A stretch of 63,963 nucleotides of DNA, filler included, from Craspedostauros australis (taxonomy: Eukaryota), in assembly GCA_030167865.1 (NCBI GenBank). It is 16 parts of 16 records of this genome, joined end to end, with 100 filler letters (N's around TTAATTAATTAA, not from the genome) between each part and the next. Parts side by side here need not be neighbours in the genome. Positions count along the whole stretch, not along the records: positions 51,442 to 56,966 come from JALAGF010004645.1; 15 more parts are not named here. The stretch is one strand, 5' to 3'. Positions 12,946-62,305 of this stretch are shown piece by piece (the first letter of the stretch is position 1; each line of letters starts with the position of its first letter). The notes below the pieces were generated by a model. That model was not told the DNA's origin and searched no databases. It saw only the letters and a list, made by a program, of their open reading frames with translations. The position numbers were made by a program, and so were the translations under genes.

Positions 12946-12989
12946 NNNNNNNNNNNNNNNNNNNNNNNNNNNNNNNNNNNNNNNNNNNN

Positions 12990-24605: not shown

Positions 24606-24705
24606 NNNNNNNNNNNNNNNNNNNNNNNNNNNNNNNNNNNNNNNNNNNNTTAATTAATTAANNNNNNNNNNNNNNNNNNNNNNNNNNNNNNNNNNNNNNN
24701 NNNNN

Positions 24706-32131: not shown

Positions 32132-32284
32132 TCAACGAATGGTCCACTCATCATCCCATGCTCTCCTGTCCTCACTTCGGCTCANNNNNNNNNNNNNNNN
32201 NNNNNNNNNNNNNNNNNNNNNNNNNNNNTTAATTAATTAANNNNNNNNNNNNNNNNNNNNNNNNNNNNNNNNNNNNNNNNNNNN

Positions 32285-34769: not shown

Positions 34770-35084
34770 NNNNNNNNNNNNNNNNNNNNNNNNNNNNNNN
34801 NNNNNNNNNNNNNTTAATTAATTAANNNNNNNNNNNNNNNNNNNNNNNNNNNNNNNNNNNNNNNNNNNNAACGGCATCACCGTGCAGGAGATTCAGAGTG
34901 CCATCGCTGTGTCGCAGCTCATTCTGCAGCAGCGCATGAAGACGCAGATGAAGATGATGCAGCGGCAGCAGAAGCGCAGTCAGAAGAGCAGGCGGCAGCG
35001 GCGGCAGAGCCATCCAGCCGTTGTCGATGCGATGACGCGTAAGGATATCTTTCTGGAGTGTGCGTAGAGGGCGAGATGGAGCAG

Positions 35085-35998: not shown

Positions 35999-36248
35999 TG
36001 ACTTGCTTAGGACTCTCATGCGTACCGCTGCAGCGCACGAATGTTGATATGGTAGGAACATCTCTAGCATGTTATTACGATAGGTCCCATCCATTGACAG
36101 TATCTTTCATGGTGGAGATCAAAAGGAAAAGCAGAGTGCGGTTTGAGGNNNNNNNNNNNNNNNNNNNNNNNNNNNNNNNNNNNNNNNNNNNNTTAATTAA
36201 TTAANNNNNNNNNNNNNNNNNNNNNNNNNNNNNNNNNNNNNNNNNNNN

Positions 36249-37019
36249 TCCGTTTGGCACTCCGGCCCACATGGTGGTCTTTCCATCGAAGAGGGCGACG
36301 AGGGTGACGGCCATGGCATAGCACAGGATGGCGAGAGAGATGAGGATGCGGCCCCAGTAGAAGAGGTTCTGGGCACCGTCGCGTGGTGGTTCCTTGGACT
36401 CGATTTCCTTGCCTGAGGCCCAGACGAAGAACATCTGGACGAGGTAGCACGAGTGCAGAAGTCCGGAGAACTCGATGGCGAGGGCGACGTAGAGGGTGAA
36501 GACGGCGAAGAAGTTGTTGATGTANNNNNNNNNNNNNNNNNNNNNNNNNNNNNNNNNNNNNNNNNNNNNNNNNNNNNNNGTCATGAGGATCATGGCGGCT
36601 CCGGATCCGAGGAAGATCTGGATGATGATGTCTGGGAGTCCGAAGACTTCGGCATCGGCGAGCGGGGCACCGCACTGGTTGATGGTGAAGACCATGAGGA
36701 GGACCATGAACTGACGTCCCATGAGGTAGCGGTCGAGGTTGTCACCCTTGTGGGCGAGGGAGGTGCACTGGTGGGCGGTTGGGTGGGATTCGACGTAGAG
36801 GTCACGGTCGACTGGTGGGAGACCGACGAGGGAACCCTGTCCTCCCTCAACCATGTTGAGCCAGACAAGGGCCGTGATCATGACGATCAGGGCAACGGCT
36901 GGGTGGACCTCGGACGAGACCTTGGTCTGCTCATTGAAGATGAGTCCGCAGACGATGGTGATCGAGAAGATGAGGAGTCCGGTGGAGTACACCGACTTGA
37001 CGAGCTGAACGGGATCCAT
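36249..37019 (-). CDS. SIT: Silicon transporter (SIT), N-terminal half, truncated by contig end
   Basis: Conserved SIT motifs MVEGGQGSLVGL, YVESHP, KGDNLDRYLMGRQFMV and YINNFFAVFTLYVALAIEFSGLLHSCYLVQ, then ALFDGKTTMWAGVP. Multiple TM helices. Confidence 0.96.
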
Positions 37020-40000: not shown

Positions 40001-40064
40001 ACAACAAAGCAATCCACAACAAAGCAATCCACAGCAAGACAGACAAGACAGAACCACACGCAAC

Positions 40065-41375
40065 ATGAGCGCCTTCCTCCATAACCTCGATCTGAACAAG
40101 ATCAAGACCATCCAGCGCAGCAACCAGCACAAGATTCCATATCTCCCATTCCCAATCAAGCTCCACCAGCTCCTCACCGACGTCGAAGAACAAGGTTTCG
40201 AGGACATCATTTCTTGGATGCCTGACAACGAGAACGCATTCCGCGTCCATGATCGAAAGCGGTTTGTGGAACTCGTCATGCCAAGGTACTTCCGCCAGAC
40301 GCACATGCGGTCCTTCACCAGACAGCTGAGGAACTACGGTTTCGTGAGGATGACGCGTGGCAGGGGCAAGAACAGCGCATACCACCATGAGCAATTCTGC
40401 CGCAACGACTTCGAGTCCGCAAAGCGCGTCGGCAACCTCAACTCTCGCCACAATGCCGCCGTCGCATCCGCTGATACATCGCCATCCTCGGCGAAGGCTG
40501 CATCGGCGGTGTCGAAGAATGTCCAGAAACTCAAGAAGATGCCCAAGTTCGCACCTATTAGACAGTCAGCGTGTCCCTTGACGACGCTCAGCGAGAAGAC
40601 GTACAGCGACATGATCGCATCAGCGGTGCTCTCCAACGCGAAGGTCGGCAACAGGAGCGTTCAAGCCGACGACGCTCTTCCATCTTCCGTTGTCCCCATC
40701 AACTCAATCGTTCAGATCTTCAGCAAGCGGGTGAGCGATGCCTCATCTTCCAGCGTATCCGTTCTTCCTCCTCCAAGCCAGCAGATCGCATCCGATCCAG
40801 AGAACGACGATGCCAGCCAAGCTTGTTCCATGCAAGACTGCACGTCAATGAAAGCGCCGCTGGATGTTGATGGCCTGTCAACGTTAGATGCAACCCACAT
40901 CGCGCGCAAACAGTCCGCGGTGGCATGTGGCCCTGTGAGACCATCTTGTTACAACAGCGCCACCACGCAAAGAGACGACTTTGAAGGCCAGGGTTACTTC
41001 CCAATCCCATGCGCCACCACGGGCAGCAGCATCGACACATTGTTGAGCCGCCATGAGAGTTTGGCGTTGCCTAATATCTTCCCGTTGGCTGGTACCGAAC
41101 AGGATATCGAGGCCGGAAAAGAAGAGCGTCGACCAAGCTTGGTGTCACTAGAAGGGTGGGATGAAGTTATTGATACTGTGAAGGAGCCCGCCTGGGATGG
41201 TGATACCAACGGTAATTCCAATGGCGATGGTGACGATGACATGGATATCCAGAAAGGACCATTCTTGCTGGATGATGCCTTGCCGGTGCCAGTAAGCACT
41301 TGCTCGTACAGCGACACTCAGGCTGTGCCGATGCACCAGCTTAGCTCGGTACCTTCCTGCATCGTGGAGTTGTAG
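40065..41375 (+). CDS. HSF: Heat shock transcription factor (HSF DNA-binding domain) protein
   Basis: PFPIKLHQLL...IISWMPD...FRVHDRKRFVELVMPRYFRQTHMRSFTRQLRNYGF...YHHEQF. ATG at 40065 follows an AC-rich leader. Low-complexity, acidic C-terminus. Confidence 0.92.
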   Translation: MSAFLHNLDLNKIKTIQRSNQHKIPYLPFPIKLHQLLTDVEEQGFEDIISWMPDNENAFRVHDRKRFVELVMPRYFRQTHMRSFTRQLRNYGFVRMTRGRGKNSAYHHEQFCRNDFESAKRVGNLNSRHNAAVASADTSPSSAKAASAVSKNVQKLKKMPKFAPIRQSACPLTTLSEKTYSDMIASAVLSNAKVGNRSVQADDALPSSVVPINSIVQIFSKRVSDASSSSVSVLPPPSQQIASDPENDDASQACSMQDCTSMKAPLDVDGLSTLDATHIARKQSAVACGPVRPSCYNSATTQRDDFEGQGYFPIPCATTGSSIDTLLSRHESLALPNIFPLAGTEQDIEAGKEERRPSLVSLEGWDEVIDTVKEPAWDGDTNGNSNGDGDDDMDIQKGPFLLDDALPVPVSTCSYSDTQAVPMHQLSSVPSCIVEL

Positions 41376-42551
41376 AATGCTCTTGGACCAATATGTATTT
41401 TGTTATACATTATTAATAGTACTCNNNNNNNNNNNNNNNNNNNNNNNNNNNNNNNNNNNNNNNNNNNNTTAATTAATTAANNNNNNNNNNNNNNNNNNNN
41501 NNNNNNNNNNNNNNNNNNNNNNNNATCAACAGGCGAAGCGATATCGTGCCGCCTCCACTGTTTCTGCCTCACAGACCACCAACATATCATACCATGCGCA
41601 TTCTATCCTGAGGCATGAGCGCCATCGTCTTGGCTCGCGACTTGCAGAGCATCGATGCTCAACCGAGGTGATTGACAGGAACATCCGCCTCATCAACGAA
41701 GTTGCGAGTACCACAAAGGAGGACATGTGGGTATACGGTGCTCATGGGCCATGGATCGCTGACCATGTGCTTCTTCTACCATACGGAAACTCTGTGTCAA
41801 CCATGATCCGCAATACTGCGCTCGCACTCTGCATGGGGTTGCTGGTTGGTTCGTTGGTTGATTCGTTGGTTTCTTCTGTTGCTCGTCAAGCTCTCTGGAT
41901 GGTTGGACTGGGCTGGCTCGTCGGTTCCTGTCTTTCCGCCACACTGGCACTGATCGCTTCGAAGATTGGAATGGATGGTGGCCCTGGCATTTGTTGCTCC
42001 AACAGTGAATGATCGCTCCTCCTGGGACTTGGTGAGGGTCTCGACTGCAGCTTTGGGCGAAATGGCGGAAGTGCAACTCCAGGAAAGATGAGAACGATAG
42101 CGTGATACGGGACGGTCGATAGAACCGCGCAGCAACCATGCTCCTCGTGGCTTCTCATCATTTCCCTCTGCCTTGTTCGCCATGTGCTCTTCGTAGATTG
42201 CCTCTTCCAGAATCTTGGATCGGCTGGCACCGGCACTGTCGCTTTGGATCTGCTTGGCAGTGTGACTTGGAGTAGAATGCTCTGTGTGCGAATCCGGCGG
42301 CACGGTGACGACCGCACGGCTTGTGAAAATGGTGCTGCCATGTGTCCATTGTCTGTGCAACGAACCAACAACGATGCTCATGGCGGGGCATGGATGGAAC
42401 CACGGACGTCCAACCTGCTCGTGAATGACATCGGCAACATCCCTGTGTGTGTATGTACTGTAGAGATAGTTTCGGAATTCCGACAAACCAAACCAAAAGA
42501 AAATAAAAACTAATTAATACCCTAACGCACAGCAAACAACAGCAAAGCAAA

Positions 42552-45161
42552 ATGAGTTCGAATCAGGGAACCAACACGAGCCAACGCGAAGAGCAGAGCC
42601 ATGACAAAGGCCCAACTTTGCAGCAACCCACCAAGGAACCCGACAAACCCACGCCCACCATGAACATCGACACAAGCAACCAACATCGAGCCAGACGACA
42701 AGCGAAAAGAGCCATCCCATACGATGGAGGAATGGAGGAAGACCCGGACGACGTATCAATCACCTTCAAACCGAGATCAAGCACGTTCAAAACCGCAGCC
42801 AACAAGACCGGCATCGACATCACGCCATACAACAAGGCAACAGGAGAAGGCTCCATTGACAGAGCAGCAAAGACAGCATGGAGAGCTCGAGCTATATGGT
42901 ACAACAGAGATGAGGCCACCGCAGACAGGGAGAATCCCACCATCAAACAGTGGGAACACTTTTTCCGCGATCTTGCCGATGGCAGAGTAACCTCCTTTGG
43001 ACCAATCACACTCCCAAACAAAGACCCCACCGGGCTCAAGCTTCTACAGTTCGTCATCAACGTTGCGTCAACCAACCCACAAGAAGTGTTCAAAGCACAC
43101 CTAAACAGCAATGGGACGGTGAAAAGCGCCAGAGCAGTCAAGGTGTGGAAGGCAGCCAATAGAGTATTGGGGTCCAACTACGATCTCGGAATAGCGCCCG
43201 ACAACACAACACCCACGAATGAAGACGCCATGGAGGGCCTCACGCTACAACCGGACTGGCCAACGCAGAATGACACGGCAGACCAACCAACGGGAAGCAG
43301 AGTAGCAGCGATGCCAGCAAATGCAACAACAGAATCACTCAGCACCGACAGCGACTCCTACACCAGCAGACAGCCCAACAAACGCACCAGGTTTAAGTCA
43401 CCACGACACACAACCAACGCCTCCGAAATCAGCCAAAACAGCTACGGGAGCTCTCAATCAGTGGGATCAGGAAGAAGCAGCGACTCATCAACCGACTCTG
43501 GCATTACCAGAAACAGCTCCGCCAAGCGCGCCCACACACGAAGCAAGCGAAGCGCAGACGACAACTCAGTGAGTTCGGATGAAGAATCGAACACGTCCCA
43601 AACGAAGATTGCCCCGCCCAGACACGAGCATACGACCAGGTTCACGATCAAACTCAATGTGGATAGAACCGAAGAGGATACCACAGCAGCAGTGAGGGAA
43701 AGAATCAAAAGGTGGTTCCGACAAGTAAGACGCATCGACTCATCGGCGACAATCCTTCCATGGAGAGAAAGCAGCAACACCGGGCCACACATCGCACACT
43801 CCGGCCAGATACCAGAACGCATGGAAGACCTCCGAACATTCTTCCCAGGCCTCAGAGCCCCATCAGGCGCTACTGGCATCACGTATGCAAAAGTACGCAT
43901 CACAACCAGGGACGACCCGTTCGATATCACCGCAGACAGGAACTCCGAACTCAACGCGTACTACTACAACGAGCATGAGGGACTGTACCTGGCACAATTG
44001 CAAGAGGCAGAGGAGGTCAAAGAAATAGGCTTCCTGCTCTACTCCGGAGGGTTCACGGACGTCAACGGCACAGTCGAAGTCATCAATCGAAGTCTACGAC
44101 GAAACCGCAGCAACATTCGGGTGGGAGGGAAAATCAAGAACATCATCCAGGTCAGCGAAGAGACCAAGGAGAAGTACAAGAACGGGAAACGACATTGGAC
44201 GGTGCAGCCGTGGAAAGCAATCAAACTGGAAGTGGAGAGGTCGCAGGCCTATGAAGCCGTTGCAGAAGTAGCAACCCTATTCAACACCAAAGAGGAGCGA
44301 CCGGGAGCAATGAACTTCAGATTCCTCCCAGACAAAAAGTACGAGCAGATGTCCAGAAAGAAGGAAGCATTCCGAGAAGACCTCCTCGCGAAACACCAGG
44401 CAATCCTCTCAGTGATCGAGTACTCTGACTCTGACGGGGTAGCACACCTGGACAAGAAAGTCAAAGCACGAGATGGCCACTCCATCACTCTGCGCAAGCT
44501 CATCCTCCGCGAAACCAACAAGGAAGGCGAACGCATATTCCACAGTGTAGACAGAGCCCGAGGCACCGACGATCAAATAGTCGCTCACTCCTTCCCGGAA
44601 TACCTCTCGGATGCGAAGTACTTCATGAGTCTCCTCCCGGCGGTTGCCAGGCACAAGGTCGGCGACAGGGCAGAGAAGTGGTTCAGCCCGGAAGTCTGGC
44701 TGGCAAGCCTGGGCATAGAGTTCGACCCGATCACCAACGACTACACATCCCCAGACATACACGGTCTAGGTGACATCGCCGACGAATCCTTCCCAGCAAG
44801 TGTGGTCATAACAAACATCCCTGACATGATGCCCGTCCACCATCGCCCGGCAGCACTCGACAACCGAAGCCTGTTCAATCCCAATTCGACAGTCGGCACC
44901 AACCGGTCCATGGACTCAGCTTACACCGTAGCCCCAAGGCTGGCCTCAACGGAAGACACCGATCACACTGCGGAGCAACCAACTCAAACCAACCAAGAAA
45001 CACACAACCGGGAAGGCATCCTGCGCACTGGATCAGCAACCAGGTATAACCAACCGCAAACCAGGGAGGCCCAACTCCTAGCACAGGTTCAAGCACTCCG
45101 AAGTCAGCTAAGCAAACCCGACGGCGACCCTCCGCAGCCTAATGGAGACCCGCAACCATGA
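42552..45161 (+). CDS. ORF1 protein of the non-LTR retrotransposon (869 aa)
   Basis: Intact ORF 85 nt inside the left TSD. Its TGA overlaps the ORF2 ATG (ATGA at 45158-45161). Ser-rich linker followed by a globular region (IGFLLYSG). Confidence 0.85.
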   Translation: MSSNQGTNTSQREEQSHDKGPTLQQPTKEPDKPTPTMNIDTSNQHRARRQAKRAIPYDGGMEEDPDDVSITFKPRSSTFKTAANKTGIDITPYNKATGEGSIDRAAKTAWRARAIWYNRDEATADRENPTIKQWEHFFRDLADGRVTSFGPITLPNKDPTGLKLLQFVINVASTNPQEVFKAHLNSNGTVKSARAVKVWKAANRVLGSNYDLGIAPDNTTPTNEDAMEGLTLQPDWPTQNDTADQPTGSRVAAMPANATTESLSTDSDSYTSRQPNKRTRFKSPRHTTNASEISQNSYGSSQSVGSGRSSDSSTDSGITRNSSAKRAHTRSKRSADDNSVSSDEESNTSQTKIAPPRHEHTTRFTIKLNVDRTEEDTTAAVRERIKRWFRQVRRIDSSATILPWRESSNTGPHIAHSGQIPERMEDLRTFFPGLRAPSGATGITYAKVRITTRDDPFDITADRNSELNAYYYNEHEGLYLAQLQEAEEVKEIGFLLYSGGFTDVNGTVEVINRSLRRNRSNIRVGGKIKNIIQVSEETKEKYKNGKRHWTVQPWKAIKLEVERSQAYEAVAEVATLFNTKEERPGAMNFRFLPDKKYEQMSRKKEAFREDLLAKHQAILSVIEYSDSDGVAHLDKKVKARDGHSITLRKLILRETNKEGERIFHSVDRARGTDDQIVAHSFPEYLSDAKYFMSLLPAVARHKVGDRAEKWFSPEVWLASLGIEFDPITNDYTSPDIHGLGDIADESFPASVVITNIPDMMPVHHRPAALDNRSLFNPNSTVGTNRSMDSAYTVAPRLASTEDTDHTAEQPTQTNQETHNREGILRTGSATRYNQPQTREAQLLAQVQALRSQLSKPDGDPPQPNGDPQP

Positions 45162-48100
45162 TAGTCAGCCACAGACGGGCACAGTCCAGCCCGAACCACA
45201 ACGGACCCGCCAACACCAGGAACTCGAGATCGGATGAATCGAATCCACAACAACTACACATCGGCCAACACACCAGCAACAAACCGACCAATCACATCAG
45301 AATAGCAGCCCTGAACATAGGCAGCTTACCACCCGACGCCACAGGACCCAAAAACGATGATCTATGGCAATCCATACGACAGCATCAAATCGACATCCTC
45401 CTCATCACGGAGATGGGACTCAACTGGAACCAAGTGCCAGCAGATGCATCGCTCGTCCACAGAGCGGAAAACATCTACGCATGGCTAAAGCCAGCACGTC
45501 CCACAACAAGACAGCCACCACCAACCCGCGACAATGGGGGGGGCACCGCCATTCTCGTCCACGGCAACACAGCAGGCCGAGTGCTATCGCGCGACAACGA
45601 CCCCGAACAGTGTGGCAGGTGGGCAAGTATGCTGCTCCAAGGCAAACAAGGCATCAAAGTGCGAGTAGCGACAGTCTACGTCCCCACCAAGTCCACACAA
45701 ACACCAGGCACCGTGTACAATCAACAAGCAGTCAAGGCTGCCCAACGAGGGTCCAACCTCGACCCAATCGACCTCCTCATCCAAGATCTGCAAGCACAGA
45801 TCGCCCAATGGAAACAAGCGGGCGAAACCATCATTGTCGGAGGCGACATGAATATGGATATACGAAGGTCGAAGATCACGACGATGCTCAGCTCGGAAGG
45901 ACTTCGAGAACACCACTCCACCAATATCTCACAACCATATGCAACCATGATCCGGAACCAACGGAGGACGCCGATAGACGGAATATGGGCCACAGGAGAC
46001 ATCCAGCCATCGCAGCTCGGACTGACGGCGTACGACAACTGGGACCACCGAACCGTATGGATGGACATTGACTCCGCCAGCCTCCTCGGTCCCAACAAAC
46101 AACCCACCACGCCTTTCCGGGGGCGCAGACTCCATCTCGGCCAGCCCGCGACAGTACGCAGATACACGGAATCATATGCAGCACAAGCAGAACAACTTCA
46201 GCTTCTGCAGCGAGCGACAACACTCCGAGCTGACATCGGCACAGGCCCAATCACCAAGAATCAGACCCAGCTGCTGGAAGCAATCGACAAGGACCGCACG
46301 CAAGCGATCCTCCACGCAGAACTCAAATGCCGGAGAGTCCGAGCGGGAGCAGTCCCCTTTTCACCAGCCTTGGCCAAACTCCACTGGGAGCACCAATTCT
46401 GGAGTCTCAGTATCAAGCGCCGCAAAGGCCACAACACCAAGGGACGAACAGTGGACAAGGCCAAGAAAAAAGCAGGCCTGCAAGTCCGCACCATCCACAT
46501 GACGACGGCCCATATGCACAAGCGCAAAAATGATGCATGGAGGTCGTATCAACGAGAGAAACAAAACGCAGCGAACCATCGACGGACGTTCCTCGCTGAC
46601 GACGAAGCAGAGGTCAACAACAAAGGCCAAGACCCAACCAAGTACCGCGCACAGCTTCTGCAGAGGGAAGAAACCCGAGCCGCATACCGACGCATCAAAC
46701 GATCTCTACAAGCTAGCGGGGACGACGCTCAGATATCCATCGTCATCGACGACGGACCCGGAGGACAAGGCAACCTACTCACCTCCGGAGAAGACGTTGC
46801 CAGAGCCTGCTGCAAGAACAATGTGGACAAATACAGTCAAGCATGGCGAGCTGAAGTGTGCCAACGGCCTCTGAAACGCAGCCTCGGAAGATTCGGGACC
46901 AACCCGGCGGCTACCGCCATCCTACATGGTGTCATCCCATCGCAAATCAAAGCCAGCACGCACGAAGTACTTCGAGCACTACAGCAGCCCACGGCAACCA
47001 CCCCATGGCCCCGCGAGCACCTCGTCATCGACCACGAGGATCATTCACGCGGATGGGTACGCATCAAGGAGAACACGTCATCCGGACCGTCCGGGATACA
47101 CTTTGGCTGCTGGAAAGCAAATGCCAAAGTGCCAGAGCTGGCTCTCATCGACGCCATCCTGCGGGAGATACCCTACAACACCGGGTACAGCCTCCGAAGA
47201 TGGCAGCAGTGTATCGACATACAGCTGCGGAAGAAGCCGGGGAACCTGGCTGTCACCAAGACAAGGACGATTGGCCTCATGGAAGGCGACTTCAACATGA
47301 ACAATCGCCTCCTTGGCAAGCAAGCCAGGTCCCACGCAGAAGCCCAACATACCATCGCCGCCGAACAATACGGCAGCCGGAAAGCCCACACCGCCCAAGA
47401 GGTCTTACTGAACACCACCCTCATCGACGACATCGGGAGGACAACAGGACTCCATTACGCTGTGTGCTCCAACGATGCCAAAGGATGCTACGACAGGATC
47501 GCCCATTCCGTCTTCAGCCTGGCCCTGCGGCGACAAGGAGTCCCGGCAGCACCAATCGAGAGCACCCTGCGCACTCTCCAATCGATGACGCACAGGATCC
47601 GCACATCCGCTGGCACATCTGCCGCATCATACTCCGGAACACAACGCCATCACTACCTGCAGGGTCTGGTTCAAGGGCTGGGATCCGCACCGACAGGTTG
47701 GTTAATGATAAGCTCTGCTATCATCGACAGCATGCGCAGCCACGGGTATGGGCTCAGTCTTCCAAACCCCATCACCAACGAAAGCCACGTCATCACCGGC
47801 ACGGCTTACGTCGACGATACAAACGTGATGCAAAGCCTTCCCGCACAAACCCCCAACGCGCAAGCTCGGCTCTTTCAGGACGTGGTGGACCGTTGGGACA
47901 ATCTGCTGACAGCTACGGGCGGGGCATTGGAACCAACCAAAAGCTTCTGGCAACTGATCCGATTCAAATGGCAGAAGACAAGATGGGTCTACAACCTATC
48001 AGCCCCCAACATCGGGGTCTTCATGAACTCTCCCGACGGCCAACGCATTCGCCTCACCATATCCAGTCCAAGAACCGCCGGCAAATACCTGGGCATGGTA

Positions 48101-50764
48101 TCATGCAGGGACGGCAAACAAACCGACCACGCCGACTACCTACTTCAGAAGTCCAAAGGGTGGGCAGAACGGATCCGGACATCCCGCATCAGCCGGCAGG
48201 ACACGGAGGTGGCCCTCAAGTCAGTGCTCTGGCCATCGTTGTCATACTCCACACCAGCCACCACGATGTCACAGCGCCAATGGCACACAGTGATGAGCGC
48301 GGCGCTATCGGCTGCCCTTCCAACCATGGGCATCGCCCGGACCATCGCCAGGGAATATGCATTTGGACACTCCGATGACATGGGCATGGGCATCCCTCAC
48401 CTACACACGATGCAAACCATCGAACACCTGGCGATGGTCATGCGCCACTTTGAGCAAGATACGGAAACCGGGCGCCTGCTGCGCACCTCGCTCCGACACC
48501 TCGAGCTGTGGACAGGCCTGCCAGGCCAGCTGCAACAACAAGAACACATCTGGAAGAGCTGGACAGCCACATCGTGGTGGCAGAACACATTTCAGTCAGC
48601 AACGCAGCTCGGCATCTCCATGACCGACCAGTCTCACAGTGTCAACGCTCCACGTCAAGGCGATGTGACGATCATGCATCTCGCGATACAAGCCGGCATC
48701 CACAAGGCCACCCTTGGACTCGCCAACGTCGCCAGGCTGTATCTCCGAGCAATTTGGCTGTCTGACATCGTCACAGCATGCGGGAAACAGATCCGGTCAT
48801 GCGTCCTCCAGCGAGCTCGGCTACCCGCCGGGTCCATCACATGGCCCAAGGTTGGAACAGTCACTAAAAAGGCGTGGGAAGCATGGGAGCAGGTACTGGC
48901 AACCTTCGCGGCCACCGACCGACCAGGGTGGCACATCAAGGTCCAGCTGGGAGCCTGGCACCGAGCGCCGGCCCAACGCGCGGCTCAATTACCAAACGGG
49001 ACAGTGCTACTGCCAGGCCAGCATGGAGTCTCCACACGTCCAGGAGGGCCGCCCACATCCGTCGTCGATCGCACCGTCCGAAGGGCTGGGCTGACGACCA
49101 CGTCCTCCGGTCCCATCCTTGCCAAACCTCCGCCTACCACAATCCGAGACTGGCTGCAACTCAAAGGGCCAGCGGCCAGAGCAATGCTACCAGTGGTCCA
49201 CATCAATGGAGACATCCACCAAATAGTCCAGTCGATCGTGGAAGGCAGATGTGCGGCGTGCAGTGACGCATCCGCCAAGCACAACCACGGCTCCGCGGCC
49301 ACCATCATACAGAGCGACGTGGGAGACGACACTCATCAGCTCATCGCCACCGCCGAAGTCCCCGAAGGGTCCCACCCGACCGACTCCAACAGGGCGGAGC
49401 TGGCAGGAGTGCTCATGTCCATATGGGTCGTGACCGCAATCGCAGAGTGGGCAGGAGTGACCGGAACGGCCACAGTCGCTTGCGACAACAACCGGGCCTT
49501 GCAATCAGTCGATCCAGCCCGATGGCCCGATCCCAAACGACCGGACCACGACCTGTGGACCGAGATTGTCCGGCGCCTCCGCAACTCTGCCGTTCACTTC
49601 AGGCCACAAGAAGTGCAAGGCCACGCCGACTCATCTGGCCGGCAGCTCACGGAGTGGGAGGCCATGAACGTGTCCGCCGACGCCCACGCAGGCTATCAGT
49701 GGGAGCAATCGCAACAGAGCGGGTGGAGCGCGACCATACCGCCCATTCCAACCGGAGGATGGGTACTGCACGCGGGCGCTACTTCCATCACAGATCTTGA
49801 CTACTGGACCGTCCACAAAGCGCTCGACGACGCAGGTATTCGGCGCAAATGGTGCCAACGCTGGGGGACAGCCAACCCCGAGGACGTGGATTGAACACCA
49901 ATGCGCGCCTGCTCCCGTCGATGGCGAGGAGGCAAGCGACGCACGCTGCTCAAACTGATGACGGGCACAAGCGCCAGCGGTAAGAATATGCAGCGACGGC
50001 AACAAGACACCTCGGACGCATGCCCCCGCTGCGGCCAGCCAGAAGACAACTCCCACATTATTATGTGTCAAAGCGCCTCCAGCCAGGCGATCTGGGCCAA
50101 AACAATCTCCAAGATACGGTCTATCGTGCGACCACCCACCACGCCTCCAGCCGTCGTGCAACTACTATGCACAGCCCTAGTACGGATATCCACCGGAGGC
50201 ATCCCGCCGTCTGGAATCAGAGACTCGCCCACCAAACGCATCCAACTCCAGCAAGCCGCGGTGGGATGGCCAGCCATCATGTGGGGCGGATGGGCAAGCC
50301 CTTGGCGAGACCAGGCACCTCCCATGCCCCAGCACAAACGCCGACGGGCCCCCAAGCAACTCTGAGACTGGCAGACCAGCGTCACCAACATCCTCTGGCA
50401 CGCGGCACTCGAACACTGGCGTGACCGGAACGAGACTAAGGCCGCTCAGACAGCTGAGAACATGATCACCCTCCTACAGCAGCAAGCGAACCTGATCCAG
50501 GCCATGCCGGCCGTGGACGTCCCGTTGGTCCTACATCCTCTCTGGCGGCAGCCTCCCCCCCCCCACCACCAGGCGATCGCCACATCAGAATGGGTACAAG
50601 CCATGCGGCAAGGTCTGGGCGGCGCATGCCCGCACGCCTCCAAAGTGCTCGTGAACTGGATGCGACGACTCCGGCGGCCCGCACACAACCCACCCAACCC
50701 CCACGACGGCCAACCACCGAATGACCGCAACCACAACTCCATGCAATCGGCCCCTGTCCTATAA
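45158..50764 (+). pseudogene. ORF2: AP endonuclease + reverse transcriptase + RNase H + CCHC knuckle; two in-frame TGA (49892, 50363)
   Basis: APE: ALNIG, ILLITEMG, VGGDMN, PIDGIW, WDHR. RT: QYGSRK, SNDAKGCYDRI, QGLGSAP, AYVDDT, KYLG. RNase H: CSDAS, RAELAG, ACDN, VQGHAD, NVSAD. After the first stop the same frame continues into CPRCGQPEDNSHIIMC and later HWRDRN, ending at 50764. Confidence 0.88.
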
Positions 50765-51341: not shown

Positions 51342-51441
51342 NNNNNNNNNNNNNNNNNNNNNNNNNNNNNNNNNNNNNNNNNNNNTTAATTAATTAANNN
51401 NNNNNNNNNNNNNNNNNNNNNNNNNNNNNNNNNNNNNNNNN

Positions 51442-52295
51442 CTAGAGCGACATTGCGTCAACCACACCTCATCCGACATCTCATCGAAGAGTTCGGAACC
51501 AAGGTTGAGAAGATGCAACGCTATGGGACACCGGGAACCCCGGGTCAAATCATCGTACGACCATCCGAAGATAACGGACTACAGAAGGTCGGACCGGAGG
51601 AACATGCCGAATACCGCCGAGGCGTCGGTATGCTACTCTTCCTCATCAAGCACTCGCGACCAGATATCGCGAACCCTGTGAGAGAACTCTCCAAGGTATT
51701 GATCGGGCCCACCAAGGCNNCAATGAAGGAGATGTATTGGATCATCAAGTATGTGATCGATACAAAGGACTATGGATTGAAGATCCATCCAGCACGTCCA
51801 GACGACGATGGCTGGGACATAGAGCTCTTCTGCGATAGCGAATATGCAGGAGACAAGAACACGAGAATCAGTGTAGGAGGGTTCATCCTATACCTGTGCA
51901 AGGTTCCAATCCTTTGGCGGTCCAAGGCACAGAAGGCCGTCACACTCAGCTCATCCGAAGCAGAATACATTGCCCTTTCCGAAGCGGCAAAGGAGATCTT
52001 CTTCGTCGTGCAGCTACTCGAAAGTGTGGGCGTCCCAGTGAAGACACCGATCAAGGTCCGTGTGGACAACATCGGAGCAATCTTCATTGCCAAGAACCCA
52101 TCAACATCCCAACAATCGCGGCACATCGACGTGCGCCATCACTACGTAAGGAATATGATAATCAACAAAACCATCGAAATCATTTTCGTCAAATCCAAGC
52201 AGAACACAAGCGACCGATTCACCAAGAACATCAAGGCCGACTTACAACGTGAGCACGAGAAGTCGTACCTTGACACATCAAGAACATTCGAATGA
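51442..52295 (+). mobile_element. Ty1/copia RT C-terminus + RNase H
   Basis: YRRGVGMLLFLIKHSRPDIANPVRELS, FCDSEYAGD, WRSKAQKAVTLSSSEAEYIALSE, VDNIGAI, HIDVRHHYVR, FTKN. Confidence 0.93.
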
Positions 52296-52315
52296 CGGAA
52301 TGCACACAGGAAGGG

Positions 52316-53093
52316 TGTTGGGATGTACAAGCGTGTATGTGCATCGTTCACCCGCTATTCTTGTATACACATGTACGGACGGTACAACTACATTCGTTTC
52401 AATAGTGAACTGTGATGTGTCAAAATCACATCACAAATCGAGCACATGAAAATGAACAGAATTTCTGGAGGAAATCTGCAATCAACGATTTCTGAGAGCA
52501 TCAGGAACATCGTTCGTCCATCAACCAAAGGGAACGTACGGCATCGAGTGAAACTCGATGTACTTCCCAACTAAACCTCAAATGACGACATCCTCGCCAG
52601 ACCATCACATCATCGATGGAACATGGAGTCTGAAGGACTGTGAAAGCCAACAGCTGACATCGACAAGATGTCATCGTGTCACCACATTGGCATCTGTCTC
52701 CACATCAGATCAAGAAGGCAAAGATTCGATGACCAAGGGACATTGAGATTGTGGATATACAAGGAGGAGTTGATACAAGATATTGGAGATTACTCATGGA
52801 GTAGCGGGCCGATAGAGAACGAAATGACGGAGTATATACCAAGTACGGAGTACGTATCGTATACAGAATATTGCGTAGTACCAACATGCAACATTGAGAG
52901 AGAGAGAGAGTACGAGCAACAGCGAGAGAGCATCTCGCGTGCCGGCTTATAGTCGGACCAACAGCAGATACCAGGAGCATTGGGAGACTCCAAGAGCATT
53001 GGACTAGCAACGTAATGAAATAGCAACAGAACTATAACAACCACTACCGTCACCTACAGTTGCAAGAGTATCCGTGAGCGGAACTTGCCAACA
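52316..53093 (+). repeat. 3' LTR (778 bp) of the copia element
   Basis: Preceded by the polypurine tract AGGAAGGG (52308-52315) just after the pol stop. Termini TGTTGG...CCAACA. Homologous to the LTR end at 19874-20234. Confidence 0.88.
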
Positions 53094-54014
53094 TGCATTA
53101 TGTGAGCTGTGCGCTGCGCACCCCGAAACCCACAGCCAACACATATTTGAGGATCACATGGGCGTTGCATGAATCGCAATGGCGTCATAAGGTGAGAATG
53201 ATGGTGCACCATGGCAAAGAGGAGCAATGATCCAATGGGTGTGAAGGAAGTTGAGTCACGCAGCAGAGAAGCATCTGCTCAATAGATGGCGAACAATGAT
53301 GACACTATAGTAGAGTCTACAATAGTACTGCGTTGCACAATCGCACTCTACTGAAGTCAACGCTGTGCACTTCTCTCCCCCAAGATGAAGGAGCACTACC
53401 GCTTAGCAGACACACACACAAACTACCAGACAGACTAACAAGACAACACAAGATGCTGACATGACGGTATACCCTACAAGACCGATAGAACTGAAACCGA
53501 AGTCGGGATTGATGCCACATGATGGGAAGAACCCGGATCTAGTTTTCCTGTTGGACAAAAGAGACATTAATACAGATGTTGGATTTTACCGCTGCTTCGT
53601 CCGTTGGGCATGGCCGGCGGACACATTTCCGCCTGGTCGGCGTGATGGCTGAATCCTTTCCAGTACATATTCCGCGGCGATTCTCTGATTCCCACCAGGC
53701 TTCTCTCGTTGAATGATGACTGTCGATCGTGCGAAATTGGTTGAACGATCAGACCGAGACATGGTGAGCAATCGAATGTATCACTTCGCTCACCCCTCTG
53801 TCTCAGTGGTATTATACTATTCACTCGTATTCTGTACTGCAACGTACCCTACTCTATTGCGGCATGATGTCGGGTATTCGTAGGACGATGATTTCATGAA
53901 GTGTGCTGGACCTTCAACTTCTTTATCTCACAAATCTCAATCATTTCACAAACCAAAAGCAAACCAACGCCACCAACCCACACTATCAACCGACACTACC
54001 AACAACATCCAACC

Positions 54015-54824
54015 ATGAAGATCACCTCAGTCGCAACCCTTTTCATCGCCGCCGCCATGGCCACCAACTTCCACCTCGTGGCTGCCAGTGGAACCAAACA
54101 AGGCACCATCCGTGGCCGTCGCTTGAGCTCCAGCGCATCCTCTGGCTCTGGCTCTGCCTCTGGCTCTGCCTCCGGCTCAATCTTTTCTGCCTCCAAGGAC
54201 ACTTCCACCAGCAAATCCAGCTCTGATGGCCGTCGCTTGAGCTCCAGCACTTCTGCTGGCTCCGGATCTGTCTCTTCTGCAGATTCGCCAGACTCTCCTG
54301 GCGCTTCTGCCAGCAAGTCCGGCTCCCACAGCCGCCGCTTGAGCTCCAGCGCATCCTCTGGATCTGGCTCTGCCTCTGCCTCCGGCTCAATCTTTTCTGC
54401 CTCCAAGGACACTTCCACCAGCAAATCCAGCTCTGATGGCCGTCGCTTGAGCTCCAGCACTTCTGCTGGCTCCGGATCTGTCTCTTCTGCAGATTCGCCA
54501 GACTCTCCTGGCGCTTCTGCCAGCAAGTCCGGCTCCCACAGCCGCCGCTTGAGCTCCAGCGCATCCTCTGGCTCTGCCTCTGCCTCTGCCTCCGGCTCAA
54601 TCTTTTCTGCCTCCAAGGACACTTCCACCAGCAAATCCAGCTCTGATGGCCGTCGCTTGAGCTCCAGCACTTCTGCTGGCTCCGGATCTGTCTCTTCTGC
54701 AGATTCGCCAGACTCTCCTGGCGCTTCTGCCAGCAAGTCCGGCTCCCACAGCCGCCGCTTGAGCTCCAGCGCATCCTCTGGATCTGGCTCTGTGTCTTCT
54801 GCGTCCTCCAGTTCATCGGAGTAA
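54015..54824 (+). CDS. Secreted Ser/Gly/Ala-rich polypeptide precursor with seven RRL motifs (silacidin/silaffin-like architecture), 269 aa
   Basis: ACCATG start, signal peptide MKITSVATLFIAAAMATNFHLVAA, then IRG-RRL. Alternating peptides A (SSSASSGSGSAS..SGSIFSASKDTSTSKSSSDG) and B (SSSTSAGSGSVSSADSPDSPGASASKSGSHS), each preceded by RRL. Near-identical ~210-bp DNA repeats. Confidence 0.8.
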   Translation: MKITSVATLFIAAAMATNFHLVAASGTKQGTIRGRRLSSSASSGSGSASGSASGSIFSASKDTSTSKSSSDGRRLSSSTSAGSGSVSSADSPDSPGASASKSGSHSRRLSSSASSGSGSASASGSIFSASKDTSTSKSSSDGRRLSSSTSAGSGSVSSADSPDSPGASASKSGSHSRRLSSSASSGSASASASGSIFSASKDTSTSKSSSDGRRLSSSTSAGSGSVSSADSPDSPGASASKSGSHSRRLSSSASSGSGSVSSASSSSSE

Positions 54825-57066
54825 ATAGGCTCCCCAGGTTCCCCGACTCTGCAGACATTCCAGACGTCCCAAGTCGTCCCTCTCTTGAGTGATCTCGTCG
54901 GACTCCGGCATCTAAAGAGACGTAATCAGCGCACTCTACTTTACACATCATGCATTTAACTTGCCAAGTTGCCTCACATTTCGGCCATCAGACGGACCAA
55001 GCAGCCCCACACGACCAATCGCGAACCGGAAACCTTGGTCAGTCAACAGACGGAAAAGGCAATAGCAATGGCAGAATAATCAATAGGAATGCACTGCTTT
55101 ACCAACAAAAACCCTATCCTGCTTCCAAAACATTGTGTTGTCGTGCCTGCTCGAGATTCCATATCCATAGTGATTTTTTGTGTGTGCCTCCGAAGGCACT
55201 TTCTCTAGTGGCTAGTGGCTAATTTCCGGTTTTTTGGCACTTTTTGGTAATTATTGGTAACCATTGGCCTACCGCCGACGGCACAAGCAACCATTCGATG
55301 AGCTGATGGCCGTTGGCCAACATCTTTGCACCATTAGAAAGAGGAGAGTGAGAGCTCTCTGTTGATGTGTTCATTGTAGGCAAACGGTCTCCGCTTGCTG
55401 TTCATCTTGATGCCTGTTTTAACCCTTTATCGGCCTTTTTCGTACGGACGACGTACGGACGTAGCTTCGGAATTTCATCGTTGGTAACCATTGGTAACCG
55501 CGTAGAGTCTACGACATTCTGGTACAGAAACTTGTTGCTTCTTCGTCCAATCTCGACCGACTGCCTTCCAAAGACCCGCATCCAATTCTGTTTCGTCTGT
55601 TGCACAAGTGAATGGCATGGCTGTATTCGTCGCTTCATCCTGCTTCGGGTGGTGTGCTGGTCAGCGGTCCAGAATGCTTTTGTGTGTTGCTTTGGGTGTT
55701 TGAAGTCAGTCACTAATTCTCGTGACAGCCATGATCATCGATCCGTGAACGCACAAAAGCTCGCGCCAAAAATTATCGTGCGTTTTTACGTGTTGTAGAT
55801 TCGTACTGTGCTGCTCACCTGAGTCTCTCTACTTGATGCAAGGTTGTGCCTCGCGCTGATGTCGGATCATCGTGCCGTTGCTTTCAATAGACGCATTACC
55901 CTCTCCTGCACCTGCCCATGTAGTCTTGGTCTTCGAACCTCAGTTCCTCCAAAGATATATCAATTGCAAGCTATTTTCGTCACTTTACCACGTCCTATCC
56001 TCGCGAGGAAACATCGCTTCCTGATCACGCGCCACAGCTGTCTTCATTGACGCCGGTTGTTACACCCTCTCAAAGAGTAGCTACATATCTCACGCTCATG
56101 CGATGGGTGGGGTCGTCGACACAGTCGCCGCTCGAGCTCTATCAAACCGCGTTCGAATCGTTCTGTGGAGGTAGCCTGATGTTCTACACTGGTCTTGAGC
56201 GCCGCTAAGGCCAATCGAACACTGGCATCTACATTTCGCACGCGATACATGCCAAAATGCGCGCACATTGCATGGAAATTATGCGCGGCGCAGTTGCACA
56301 TGCTCAGTGATGCGGAAGATCCAAAGAAGAGCGGTCAGAGCATGGCGAGATTCGACTCCTCAGTGCGAAACAGTCGACTCTACTATATTCTGGACTGCTA
56401 TTGTGTGCTGCTGATATCCAAGGGATCATTGCTCTCCCAAGCAGGATGGATACAATGATACACATGCATCCAAGTTGCTTTTGCCAAGATGGTTGCTGGT
56501 GTACGGAATTTCGGAGTAGAACTGAAACGCTATGTCGAAATGTGTGTACTCGGATGTGTATGCATCAGTCACACTTGCTTGCCGCCATCTAGACTATTTG
56601 GTGGCGGAATCACGACACAAAACTATGACGTCACAGCGATACCATCGCTGTACCACGAGGACACCGCGATACTACGACGCCAGGATACCGCGATACCAGC
56701 GAATACCACAGTATCCACCACACCTGACGTCACATCAAGGCCTTACCTACCAGGTCTACAGGAATGCAATATGTTTTAAACACTCCATCAGATTCGATCA
56801 ATCATCAGATTCAACAAAACCCGAGAACGGAACAACGACGAGACAACGAGAGAAAGACGACAACGTTGATGATCAAGTCAACATCAACGAGCAACATGAG
56901 AGCAATGTGCATGGAGGTGCAAGAGGATTGCACCAAGCAATGAGAGCAAGGAAGAGATGGATCAAGNNNNNNNNNNNNNNNNNNNNNNNNNNNNNNNNNN
57001 NNNNNNNNNNTTAATTAATTAANNNNNNNNNNNNNNNNNNNNNNNNNNNNNNNNNNNNNNNNNNNN

Positions 57067-60691: not shown

Positions 60692-60791
60692 NNNNNNNNN
60701 NNNNNNNNNNNNNNNNNNNNNNNNNNNNNNNNNNNTTAATTAATTAANNNNNNNNNNNNNNNNNNNNNNNNNNNNNNNNNNNNNNNNNNNN

Positions 60792-62205
60792 GGTGCTCTC
60801 GGCAAAGGACTTGCCGCTCTGCATGTTGGTGTCCGACGACTACATCGAAGACTCCTTCTTCGATAACTTCGAGTGTGTCGGGAATGACGACGAAGTGCAG
60901 GACGATGAGATCGTCCCGGAGTGGCTCAGTGAAGAGCCAATCATCCACGAGGTGGATCCAAGACGCGAAGTGAGCTACGAATGCTGCTTCAACGCGCACG
61001 ACCTGATCGGTTCATACGGCNNNNNNNNNNNNNNNNNNNNNNNNNNNNNNNNNNNNNNNNNNNNNNNNNNNNNNNNNNNNNNNNNNNNNNNNNNNNNNNN
61101 NNNNNNNNNNNNNNNNNNNNNNNNNNNNNNNNNNNNNNNNNNNNNNAATGGCGCAGATGAAGACGACGACGACACCATCAGTGACGGGGCGAACCGCGGC
61201 GAAGCGCCGCCGCCCGCAGCAATGCGAAACGAGAGAGCGGGCATCTTCGATGAAGAGGACAGCGACGAAGCTGAGAACCATACGAACGATGCATTCAACC
61301 CCTACGAGGTCGTCGTCTACCCAATTCGAATCCAATTCCCACCGGAGCCGAATCCCAGAAGAGTCGAAGACATCTACCGACTACAAACCTTCCCAGAACC
61401 AACGGTCACTGCAAAACGAATGCAGAAGCAGCTCATCTACGACGCGGTCCTAACAGCTGCATTGCCGATGTTCCCAGGGTTCGTGAACGAACCATTGCGA
61501 TACATNNNNNNNNNNNNNNNNNNNNNNNNNNNNNNNGATAACTTCAAATCGATTGAAGAGATCCTCGCAAACGCAGCCATCCTCAACCGACTACTGCAAG
61601 CAAACGAAGAGGAGGAACTCTCTGAGCTGGACTTACACTACGTGCTCAGAGGATGCATGCAGGTGCTCCTGCGTGAACGACCACGCGTCACACCGTATGA
61701 CACGGTCACCGGATTTCATCATAACAGCACCGCCCCAGCGAGCTTCGCTGAACTACCAAGCGACGACGAAGCTGACGAGAATCACAATCCATACAACGAA
61801 GATGGAGTGCATGAAGATGAAGAGGCAGACGGCCTCATGGATGAAATGGCCACAGCAGCCGTGGAGCANNNNNNNNNNNNNNNNNNNNNNNNNNNNNNNN
61901 NNNNNNNNNNNNNNNNNNNNNNNNNNNNNNNNNNNNNNNNNNNNNNNNNNNNNNNNNNNGACGCCGCTCTCTTCAACGTGCGGCACATCAAGTCCTTCGT
62001 CCAAGTGGGAGACAGCACGAAGCTGGAATCTCCCAAGATGGGATCCATTCGCTTGAAGGTCAAGCAGCGAGACAACACTGGCCACATCATCCGGCTCGAT
62101 GACGTGAAGTACACACCAAAAATGGCGGTGAACCTTTTCTCTACGAACAAGGCTCTGTACAACAGTTACCAGCTTGGTAACAACGGCATTCTGATGGACA
62201 TCATC
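60792..62205 (+). mobile_element. Ty1/copia pol fragment: acidic pre-protease region + protease beta-barrel
   Basis: LFNVRHIKSFVQVGDSTKLESPKMGSIRLKVKQRD...LDDVKYTPKMAVNLFS parallels the protease at 17869-18220. The catalytic DSGA motif would fall in an N gap. Confidence 0.7.
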
Positions 62206-62305
62206 NNNNNNNNNNNNNNNNNNNNNNNNNNNNNNNNNNNNNNNNNNNNTTAATTAATTAANNNNNNNNNNNNNNNNNNNNNNNNNNNNNNNNNNNNNNN
62301 NNNNN

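Follow-up and report, generated by a model that had tools for sequence, protein, structure and literature searches.

A candidate secreted polyprotein with seven RRL sites and two alternating serine-rich peptides in a raphid pennate diatom

Background

What is encoded by a reading frame in which the same tripeptide, RRL, returns seven times and separates serine-rich peptides of two alternating kinds? The question arises at positions 54015-54824 (plus strand) of the window, by which we mean the whole analysed stretch of 63,963 nucleotides from Craspedostauros australis. To our knowledge, the silica-forming peptides described so far are very few, almost all of them from Cylindrotheca fusiformis and Thalassiosira pseudonana.

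The initial annotation took the frame for the precursor of a new type of biosilica peptide. Its premise about the motif agrees with the literature. In the accessible text of PMC4557024, a diatom endopeptidase recognises RXL in the precursors of silaffins, silacidins, cingulins and frustulins, and the available portion of PMC5525289 likewise gives RXL/RRL as a precursor processing motif. That portion also places an 'RXL domain' after the signal peptide of diatom biosilica proteins, and it still describes the protease that recognises RXL as unknown. According to the accessible text of PMC4557024, mature silaffins are without RRIL/RRNL, and the silacidin precursor is a secreted, highly repetitive protein that is cut at RXL to short Ser-rich peptides, whose phosphoserines make them polyanions working with long-chain polyamines.

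Results

Short contigs were joined to make up the window, and the physically linked context of the gene is only the 5.5-kb piece at 51442-56966, bounded by N44-TTAATTAATTAA-N44 spacers at 51342-51441 and 56967-57066. The same assembly contains a silicon transporter (Pfam PF03842, E 4.6e-113). Its best single-domain relative is a protein of Stauroneis constricta, 73% identical, and from the relatives of the transporter we conclude that the host is a raphid pennate diatom. Linkage of the gene with this transporter was considered and rejected: the transporter sits on a different contig of the window, so there is no genomic association of the gene with silicon genes.

The open reading frame (ORF) at 54015-54824 encodes 269 aa and ends with a TAA stop. 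A frame scan shows that the ATG at 54015 is the first in-frame ATG past an in-frame stop ending at 53891. It is preceded on the plus strand by a C/A-rich leader (53930-54014) and has the start context ACC-ATG-A; if the leader reaches that far, it holds an upstream ORF of 40 codons that overlaps with the ATG. The N-terminus, about residues 1-24/25 (54015-54089), looks like a signal peptide by hydropathy and in the structural model: MK is followed by a hydrophobic core and by small residues at -3/-1 (VAA/SG or AAS/G, the slash marking the cut). The Kyte-Doolittle maximum is 2.32 at residues 6-16, and heuristic -3/-1 candidates lie after residues 23-26. By a crude hydropathy test, only seven of the 113 window ORFs of at least 100 aa have such an N-terminus. 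The AlphaFold model has a mean pLDDT of 39 and is disordered save for a helix at residues 7-17, within the signal. Since the C-terminus is without a hydrophobic stretch, there is no GPI-type or membrane anchor.

Split at RRL, the protein gives 34 aa (signal and propeptide) and then pieces of 35, 31, 33, 31, 33, 31 and 20 aa. A short propeptide (54090-54125) closes with the first RRL (54117-54125), 10-13 residues beyond the predicted signal cleavage, and one RRL closes each unit after it. Together with the alignment of the units, this splitting places peptide A1 (35 aa) at 54126-54230, with its RRL at 54231-54239, and peptide B1 (31 aa) at 54240-54332, with RRL at 54333-54341. Peptide A2 (33 aa) follows at 54342-54440 (RRL 54441-54449) and B2 (31 aa), with the same DNA as B1, at 54450-54542 (RRL 54543-54551). 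The third pair consists of A3 (33 aa) at 54552-54650, closed by RRL at 54651-54659, and B3 (31 aa), again with the DNA of B1, at 54660-54752, closed by RRL at 54753-54761. The protein ends in a Ser-rich tail of 20 aa (54762-54821), and the stop codon (54822-54824) comes 60 nt beyond the last RRL. The tail opens like A and goes on like B, which marks it as a truncated unit. Directly past the stop, still in frame on the plus strand, lies a degenerate remnant (54825-54850) reading GSPGSPT, similar to DSPDSPG in peptide B; judging by this remnant, the array was probably longer in the past. Silaffin-1A peptides have 15-19 aa, while the units here have 31-35 aa.

The three AB units measure 216, 210 and 210 nt. 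All three 102-nt B units are 100% identical, and the A units differ from one another at 3 substituted columns and by one 6-nt indel. The unit lengths (114, 108 and 102 nt) and the indel are all multiples of three, and the frame has no stops or frameshifts. TRF reports a period of 210 with 3.2 copies and 97% matches, and an older period of 102 with 5.7 copies and 68% matches. From the DNA, two steps in the origin of the array can be told apart: a unit of about 102 nt was duplicated long ago and its copies diverged into A and B, and the AB pair was triplicated or homogenised very recently. The copy number of the 210-nt repeat may be wrong in this short-contig assembly. Each of the sequence features in the initial annotation (ORF, seven RRL, order A-B-A-B-A-B-tail, unit sizes) is present at the positions given there, and the architecture of a signal peptide followed by alternating RRL-delimited peptides in near-identical DNA units is as it had been described.

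Of all parts of A and B, which have diverged, the RRL-SSS boundary is the best kept, with an identical 18-nt word at 7/7 sites. This word occurs seven times in the window, always inside the ORF, where 0.01 occurrences are expected; none of 100 shuffles reached seven. Past the signal peptide, all Leu and 14 of the 15 Arg residues sit in RRL. Recent copying of the units reduces the seven RRL to about two or three independent originals: the end of A, that of B and that of the propeptide, the last with the same DNA as an A end.

Serine makes up 42% of the 269-aa protein, Ser and Thr together 47%, and Pro 2.2%. The peptides are about half serine, as had been claimed for them at 31-35 aa: in order, Ser accounts for 18/35, 15/31, 17/33, 15/31, 17/33 and 15/31 residues, and for 14/20 in the tail. 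Asp and Glu together number 13/269 (4.8%) and Lys 11/269, and the net charge of the unmodified peptides is 0 or -1. KxxK is absent, any 14-aa window of the protein has at most two Lys, and peptide A contains K-x5-K. This composition count bears out the differences from silaffins and silacidins given in the initial annotation (few Asp/Glu, no KxxK, K-x5-K in A). Cys, Trp and Tyr are absent from the protein; the peptides have no N-glycosylation sequon, and one Phe per A peptide is their sole aromatic residue. Cingulins are characterised by KXXK-rich regions alternating with Trp- or Tyr-rich regions, and none of these features is found here. The 232 residues past the first RRL hold 13 S-x-D/E seeds and 67 S-x-S spacings.

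Comparison of A with B in the plus frame gives 11, 5 and 17 differences at codon positions 1, 2 and 3 (34 of each). Translated in this frame, A and B share 19/34 amino acids, the highest identity of all six frames; the other five give 11-15 of 32-34. On the antisense strand, two frames likewise stay open through the repeat, which makes three open frames of six. The third codon positions of one of these two coincide with those of the plus frame, so the excess at third positions cannot tell the strands apart. When the window was searched by unfiltered tblastn, it gave outside the ORF only low-identity (20-55%) compositional matches.

One public run, X1, possibly of RNA, was compared with positions 53000-54330 only, which hold one copy of each unit. 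A 280-nt contig of this run contains A-end, RRL and B pieces of 95-99% likeness in a different arrangement, and the 63 and 19 intervening letters preserve the reading frame. X1 shows a related array, not this exact gene. Over the 5' leader and signal peptide (53675-54124) it offers no coverage, which says nothing for or against expression.

Is the protein known under another name? The HMMER composition correction may mask true low-complexity relatives; subject to this, Pfam gave no family at E<=1 for the 269-aa protein, and an exhaustive phmmer search of 1,835,955,588 representatives gave nothing at E<=0.001. A word-indexed search of 5.8 billion proteins, which took in lengths of 147-471 aa only, found none at E<=0.01, and for residues 1-141 none at E<=10. 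Exact look-up in a protein collection returned 0/8 window ORFs (P0001 and seven others), and the ESM Atlas gave no usable match (recognition 1274). Among metagenome contigs, 588 pattern matches were obtained and none was confirmed; an exact 21-mer had no matches there. Rfam found nothing at E<=0.1 over the contig of the gene. The literature, searched by words and not by sequence, yielded no description of the protein, and both RRL and precursor are absent from the text of PMC5649158, on silacidin knock-down. The statement that the protein has no close match to a characterised one thus stands for every library searched. In the available text of bioRxiv 10.1101/2021.09.18.460806, soluble silica-associated proteins usually have orphan, low-complexity, species-specific sequences, so missing homologues are not remarkable per se.

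Discussion

We tentatively propose, at a little under even confidence, that the locus is a nuclear gene and that its product is a small polyprotein, secreted and intrinsically disordered, with processing of the RXL type, like the precursors of silaffin-1 and the silacidins. If so, the predicted signal peptide would take the product into the ER and be removed near residue 24/25. By analogy with silaffin-1, a diatom RXL-specific endoprotease would cut past each of the seven RRL, and the RRL would then be trimmed off. The products would be the short propeptide, three copies of peptide A (33-35 aa), three copies of peptide B (31 aa) and one 20-aa tail. The fixed 1:1 ratio of A to B claimed earlier would follow from the arithmetic only with all sites cut. 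Since Cys, Tyr, Trp and the N-glycosylation sequon are all missing from the peptides, any groups added to them must be O-linked, and the likeliest modification would be dense, putative phosphorylation of Ser in the secretory pathway. Such phosphorylation would turn near-neutral peptides into polyanions that could act as a silacidin-like partner of long-chain polyamines. Their putative site of action would be the silica deposition vesicle or the cell wall.

A bolder suggestion is that we are dealing with the first member of a new class of diatom biosilica peptides: near-neutral Ser/Gly/Ala peptides, polyanionic only via dense phosphorylation, made as an obligate 1:1 A/B pair from one polyprotein of a raphid pennate, and taking, as anionic partner of long-chain polyamines, the place of the silacidins of centric diatoms, in an array that would change fast through duplication of its units, as the other arrangement in X1 suggests. 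We consider it unlikely.

How far does the comparison with known proteins go? Two features of RXL-processed cell-wall precursors, a class defined by function and not by homology, are found in the candidate, namely a signal peptide (by heuristic) and RXL both past the signal and at unit ends. The propeptide with the first RRL would be analogous to the 'RXL domain' described in the accessible portion of PMC5525289. With the silacidin precursor of T. pseudonana the candidate shares a signal peptide (predicted here), RRL-delimited repeats and high Ser. The silacidins are rich in Asp and Glu in the available text of PMC4557024, in contrast to the 13/269 acidic residues here. Further, the candidate has two alternating peptide types against one series in the silacidin precursor, and it comes from a raphid pennate instead of a centric diatom. 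Library search, as distinct from pairwise comparison, showed no similarity to silacidin in libraries expected to include T. pseudonana proteins.

The likeness to Sil1p of C. fusiformis, as the same partial text of PMC4557024 presents it, lies in a signal peptide, RXL after the signal and tandem Ser-rich units closing with an RRL-type motif, which is RRIL or RRNL in Sil1p and RRL here. In both, Ser comes first after the cut, and both diatoms are pennate. Ser-rich units closing with RRxL or RXL, a feature of silaffins, are thus found in the candidate. Silaffin peptides, however, are rich in Lys, which bear polyamine modifications, and strongly basic (PMC4557024, in the text available), and the candidate has few Lys. 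The known silica-targeting signal of silaffins, the pentalysine cluster (five Lys in 12-14 aa; PMC9650480, accessible text), is likewise missing, as is KxxK. The SSPs of Thalassiosirales, in the available text of bioRxiv 10.1101/2021.09.18.460806, are low-complexity, compositionally biased, predicted to be disordered and mostly species-specific, with orthologues unseen by BLAST. The candidate has the same group properties: low complexity, bias, predicted disorder and no BLAST-type relatives. SSPs, though, were defined by mass spectrometry of dissolved biosilica, whereas the candidate is known from sequence alone. What counts against a role in silica is that the predicted peptides are without the targeting or defining features of known silica peptides. 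With no homologue in the libraries searched, evolutionary conservation lends the reading no support either. An RXL-processed secreted polyprotein with a composition outside silaffins and silacidins is nevertheless a plausible reading. The interpretation in the initial annotation is supported in part, namely in its architecture, diatom host, motif and orphan status; its 'distinct family' so far consists of one gene and one related fragment in X1.

Other explanations have to be considered. The protein could be a secreted, O-glycosylated, mucin-like component of the surface or mucilage of a motile raphid diatom (adhesion, gliding trails, cell coat), RRL-cut or uncut and with no role in silica. 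This is rather unlikely in our view, but several observations fit it: the host is a raphid pennate by the relatives of its silicon transporter, Ser and Thr reach almost half of a protein predicted to be disordered throughout, and silica-targeting Lys clusters are missing. The accessible text of bioRxiv 10.1101/2023.03.06.531300 describes diatom adhesive material as Ser/Gly/Thr-rich and as containing proteins with signal peptides and repetitive disordered Pro/Thr/Ser-rich regions whose O-glycosylation is supposed. The adhesive proteins in that text, however, are Pro/Thr/Ser-rich and carry dihydroxyproline, and Pro is scarce here; they have a modular build and a very large size, often with Cys-rich domains or domains of other kinds, as against 269 aa without Cys or any domain. 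These features of PTS-rich, mucin-like adhesive proteins were not found in the candidate. 'RXL' occurs 0 times in the main text of the same preprint, while the RRL boundary is the most conserved part of our array. A precursor of secreted signalling or bioactive peptides, a diatom analogue of the fungal Kex2-processed repeat proteins (KEPs), would follow the same architectural logic, with a signal peptide and near-identical cores flanked by a dibasic-containing site. We find it very improbable, and we know of no such peptide signal in diatoms. Half-Ser peptides that have no Cys and only one Phe per A as aromatic residue, and are predicted to be disordered, are unlike known receptor ligands, and the motif is of the diatom RXL type, not KR. 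KEPs, described for fungi in the available texts of PMC6339444 and PMC9769878, resemble the candidate in principle (signal peptide, repeated cores, basic cleavage motif, secretory release), but they belong to another kingdom, have KR in place of RRL and differ in peptide chemistry, so that the analogy is one without homology.

The array may also have no function at all, being either a young minisatellite with an incidental open frame or a silent, decaying copy of a family with a working member elsewhere. Openness in three of six frames would agree with this, as would the lack of homologues in the protein libraries searched, the TE-rich contig with a retroelement-like ORF at its start, the degenerate remnant past the stop and, if the leader is that long, the upstream ORF overlapping the start codon. 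X1 covers a related array and not the 5' part of the gene, a gap that is not evidence in itself. Against it, an ATG, a signal-like peptide and an intact frame have come through both the old (A versus B) and the recent changes; every indel is a multiple of three, neither stops nor frameshifts are present, and amino-acid conservation is highest in the plus frame. We hold this explanation to be unlikely. Hardly credible is the last one, that the real gene lies on the minus strand, as one exon for a repeat protein that is acidic and rich in Glu, Ala, Leu and Pro. Its frame (53996-54925) is open for 309 codons, its third codon positions match those of the plus frame, so that the excess there fits it too, and as a whole it matches Pfam SHNi-TPR with 26.7 bits against a cut-off of 21. 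Taken singly, however, a unit reaches just 14.5 bits (E 0.025) and aligns with profile positions 4-16 of 38; the whole-frame match is thus a sum over identical repeats, and we rejected this antisense match. The minus frame has no ATG before its last ~40 codons and would need an unseen upstream exon. The identity of A and B in it is 15/32, below the value in the plus frame, and part of the frame would be a textbook signal peptide read in reverse complement.

If the secreted, RXL-processed precursor that we favour is real, a compact protein with seven identical RRL would be a clean natural substrate for finding the RXL protease. With its two simple peptides, one could readily test whether phosphoserine density by itself suffices to direct polyamine-dependent silica precipitation where acidic side chains and Lys clusters are missing. 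If the product belongs to mucilage or is unexpressed, the locus is one more orphan low-complexity ORF, of a kind that is numerous in diatom genomes.

The contig that carries the gene is TE-rich. The retroelement-like ORF at its start (51444-52295) has no Pfam match even at E<=1; it looks copia-like.

Architecture of the candidate precursor

The open reading frame (ORF) at 54015-54824 (+) comprises 269 codons, beginning with the ATG that comes first in frame downstream of an in-frame stop ending at 53891; this ATG has the context ACC-ATG-A and follows a C/A-rich leader. Splitting the product at its seven Arg-Arg-Leu (RRL) sites gives an N-terminal piece of 34 aa, peptides of 35, 31, 33, 31, 33 and 31 aa, and a tail of 20 aa. 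The order is A-B-A-B-A-B-tail, where A and B denote two alternating peptide types, and the reading made in the initial annotation is borne out. Ser accounts for 48-52% of each peptide, 70% of the tail and 42% of the whole protein, which also contains 12.6% Ala and 10.8% Gly.

The N-terminus directly after the ATG is signal-like: its second residue is Lys, residues 6-16 form a hydrophobic core (Kyte-Doolittle maximum 2.32), and candidate cleavage sites after positions 23-26 have small residues at -3/-1. By a crude hydropathy test, only 7 of the 113 window ORFs of at least 100 aa have such an N-terminus, two of them being silicon transporter pieces. Downstream of the predicted signal peptide all Leu and 14 of 15 Arg fall within RRL.

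The near identity of the DNA units, which had also been claimed, holds: AB units are 216, 210 and 210 nt long, the three B units (102 nt) are identical, and the A units are distinguished from one another by substitutions in three columns and a single indel of 6 nt. Every unit length, like every indel, is divisible by three. TRF finds a period of 210 (3.2 copies, 97% matches) and an underlying older period of 102 (5.7 copies, 68% matches). By this older period and the A/B alignment, A and B descend from a single ancestral unit of ~34 codons and have since diverged, and the AB pair has undergone very recent triplication or homogenisation. An 18-nt RRL-SSS word is present at 7 of 7 sites, although these amount to only 2-3 independent occurrences because the units are copies. 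The word is absent from the rest of the window (chance expectation 0.01; at least seven copies in 0 of 100 shuffles), and the RRL-SSS boundary is the best-conserved stretch when the diverged A and B units are aligned.

The product is predicted to be disordered. In the AlphaFold single-sequence model (mean pLDDT 39, pTM 0.12) the only helix is the signal core, residues 7-17. There is no N-x-S/T sequon and the C-terminus is not hydrophobic. The product has 11 Lys and 13 Asp+Glu, and the net charge before modification is 0 for peptide A and -1 for peptide B. After the first RRL there are 13 S-x-D/E and 67 S-x-S spacings.

The main start codon is overlapped (ATGA) by the TGA stop of a 40-codon upstream ORF (53896-54018, +), which would be relevant only with a 5' leader longer than ~120 nt.

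Search for relatives

The candidate product had no match in Pfam or in an exact protein look-up. No relative was found in a word-indexed search of 5.8 billion proteins (including residues 1-141 at E<=10), in an exhaustive phmmer search of 1.84 billion representatives, in the Atlas or in two metagenome scans. Such orphan status is expected, since soluble silica-associated proteins of three centric species are described as mostly species-specific, low-complexity and disordered, with orthologues that BLAST cannot recognise (bioRxiv 10.1101/2021.09.18.460806).

Only X1, the sole public sequencing run compared with the gene region, gives a sign of a relative; it consists of assembled contigs, and its RNA nature is a guess ('RNA?'). 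One contig of 280 nt carries, at 95-99% likeness, two copies of a piece with the end of A, RRL and the start of B and one copy of a piece of the A start; stretches of 63 and 19 other letters separate these pieces. By our own count both insertions preserve the reading frame, and the 19-letter one, read in the frame of the ORF, gives one further Asp-Ser-Pro-type repeat. Hence a differently arranged copy exists (allele, paralogue or other strain), and this fits a fast-evolving array. The leader and the signal-peptide part have no X1 cover, which is evidence in neither direction.

Upstream, 53543-53661 is matched on the minus strand by a 437-nt X1 contig (depth 66) with three changes and one insertion; the contig then runs through 255 letters unlike the window. 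This segment has no Rfam match; it probably represents either a dispersed repeat or some conserved sequence in front of the gene.

Possible processing and function

According to PMC5525289, biosilica-associated proteins typically have a signal peptide and then a stretch that ends in RRL; removal of that stretch is credited there to a yet unknown protease. RXL motifs, of which RRL is an instance, stand at repeat ends in silaffin, silacidin, cingulin and frustulin precursors, and mature silaffins are without RRIL/RRNL, according to parts of PMC4557024. Because of these two facts we infer that, after import into the ER by the signal peptide, a diatom endoprotease would cut at RXL and that RRL would then be removed. 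Complete cutting would turn one precursor into three A, three B, one tail and one propeptide; the 1:1 ratio of A to B is arithmetic and no finding, because it follows from cutting at all sites. Dense phosphorylation of Ser might then produce polyanionic peptides, with putative silacidin-like action together with long-chain polyamines. Tidy and testable, if unsurprising to a specialist, the candidate could prove a useful substrate in the search for the RXL protease.

The initial annotation had proposed an RRL-cut secreted precursor of new biosilica peptides. As far as sequence can tell, there are good grounds for a secreted diatom polyprotein of the RXL type, while its role as a candidate biosilica peptide precursor is a reasonable guess. 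The candidate seems to work like the Sil1p and silacidin precursors but, by testable features, is a member of neither family. It contains no Cys, Tyr or Trp, and so lacks the Trp/Tyr regions that cingulins have. Silaffins are Lys-rich with silica-targeting pentalysine clusters, as a passage of PMC9650480 puts it, whereas the candidate has at most two Lys per 14 residues and no KxxK. Silacidins are described in part of PMC4557024 as Asp/Glu-rich, whereas Asp+Glu make up 4.8% of the candidate.

Alternative readings

Could the product instead be an O-glycosylated protein of the cell surface or mucilage? With the large, Pro/Thr/Ser-rich adhesive trail proteins of raphid diatoms (bioRxiv 10.1101/2023.03.06.531300), the candidate has Ser/Thr richness and disorder in common, but it has neither their size, Pro content and Cys-rich modules nor, going by their description, a common RXL architecture. 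We regard such a role, one of the two main rivals, as rather unlikely. A silent or incidental ORF is slightly less likely still. Of the six frames, three stay open throughout the repeat, so that an open frame alone is little proof; in favour of the + frame stand its signal-like start, the unit lengths and indels in multiples of three, and the differences and amino-acid identity between A and B given below.

A real gene on the minus strand has also to be considered. Of the two antisense frames that are open over the repeat, one (53996-54925, -) is acidic and Glu/Ala/Leu/Pro-rich and lacks an ATG before its last ~40 codons; the other (54043-54951, -) has an ATG and is Trp/Cys/Arg/Gln-rich. In the + frame, A and B differ at codon positions 1/2/3 in 11/5/17 cases (34 positions each), but this third-position excess cannot separate the strands and fits the antisense reading as well, because 53996-54925 shares third codon positions with the + frame. 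Across that whole antisense frame Pfam SHNi-TPR scores 26.7 bits (cut-off 21). However, a single repeat unit scores 14.5 bits (E 0.025), under the cut-off, and we reject the match as a sum over identical repeats. None of the other five frames, at 11-15 of 32-34, reaches the amino-acid identity between A and B seen in the + frame (19/34). We consider a minus-strand gene very improbable.

Contig context

Fifteen spacers (44 N, TTAATTAATTAA, 44 N; 100 bases each) join 16 separate contigs, at 12946-13045, 17769-17868, 19774-19873, 21478-21577, 24606-24705, 26903-27002, 28512-28611, 32185-32284, 34770-34869, 36149-36248, 41425-41524, 51342-51441, 56967-57066, 60692-60791 and 62206-62305. The window is therefore an artificial joining, and gene neighbourhood across a spacer is meaningless. 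The contig pieces themselves contain additional N runs of 1-173 bases.

The contig of the candidate is 51442-56966, and Rfam gives no match on it. From its left edge enters a retroelement-like ORF (51444-52295, +), which has no Pfam match even at E<=1 and which we take to resemble the C-terminal end (RNase H) of a copia-type polyprotein. Then follow ~1.7 kb in which no gene is convincing, the candidate, and ~2.1 kb without a Pfam-recognisable gene.

On a different contig, whose edge truncates it, a silicon transporter is represented by its N-terminal half (36249-37019, -; PF03842 positions 3-259 of 513, E 4.6e-113). The single-domain relative closest to it comes from Stauroneis constricta (Naviculales; MMETSP; 73% identical); transporters of Seminavis and Cylindrotheca show 55-58% identity, and many multi-domain SITs of ~1400 aa match at 50-55%. 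From these closest relatives, the source organism is a raphid pennate diatom. There is no linkage between this transporter and the candidate ORF, on whose function the transporter says nothing.

Elsewhere in the window, one ORF (39849-41375, +) has an HSF-type DNA-binding domain (9.5e-18) and another (8669-9517, +) has DUF6824 (1.3e-08). Transposable-element ORFs lie at 17821-19530 (-), 20317-21525 (+), 60823-62253 (+), 26951-28237 (-), 32441-34825 (+) and 45158-49894 (+). They include copia-type Pol_BBD and gag and a piggyBac-like DDE_Tnp_1_7 (3.6e-46), and one, of 1578 aa with an Exo_endo_phos domain, looks LINE-like.
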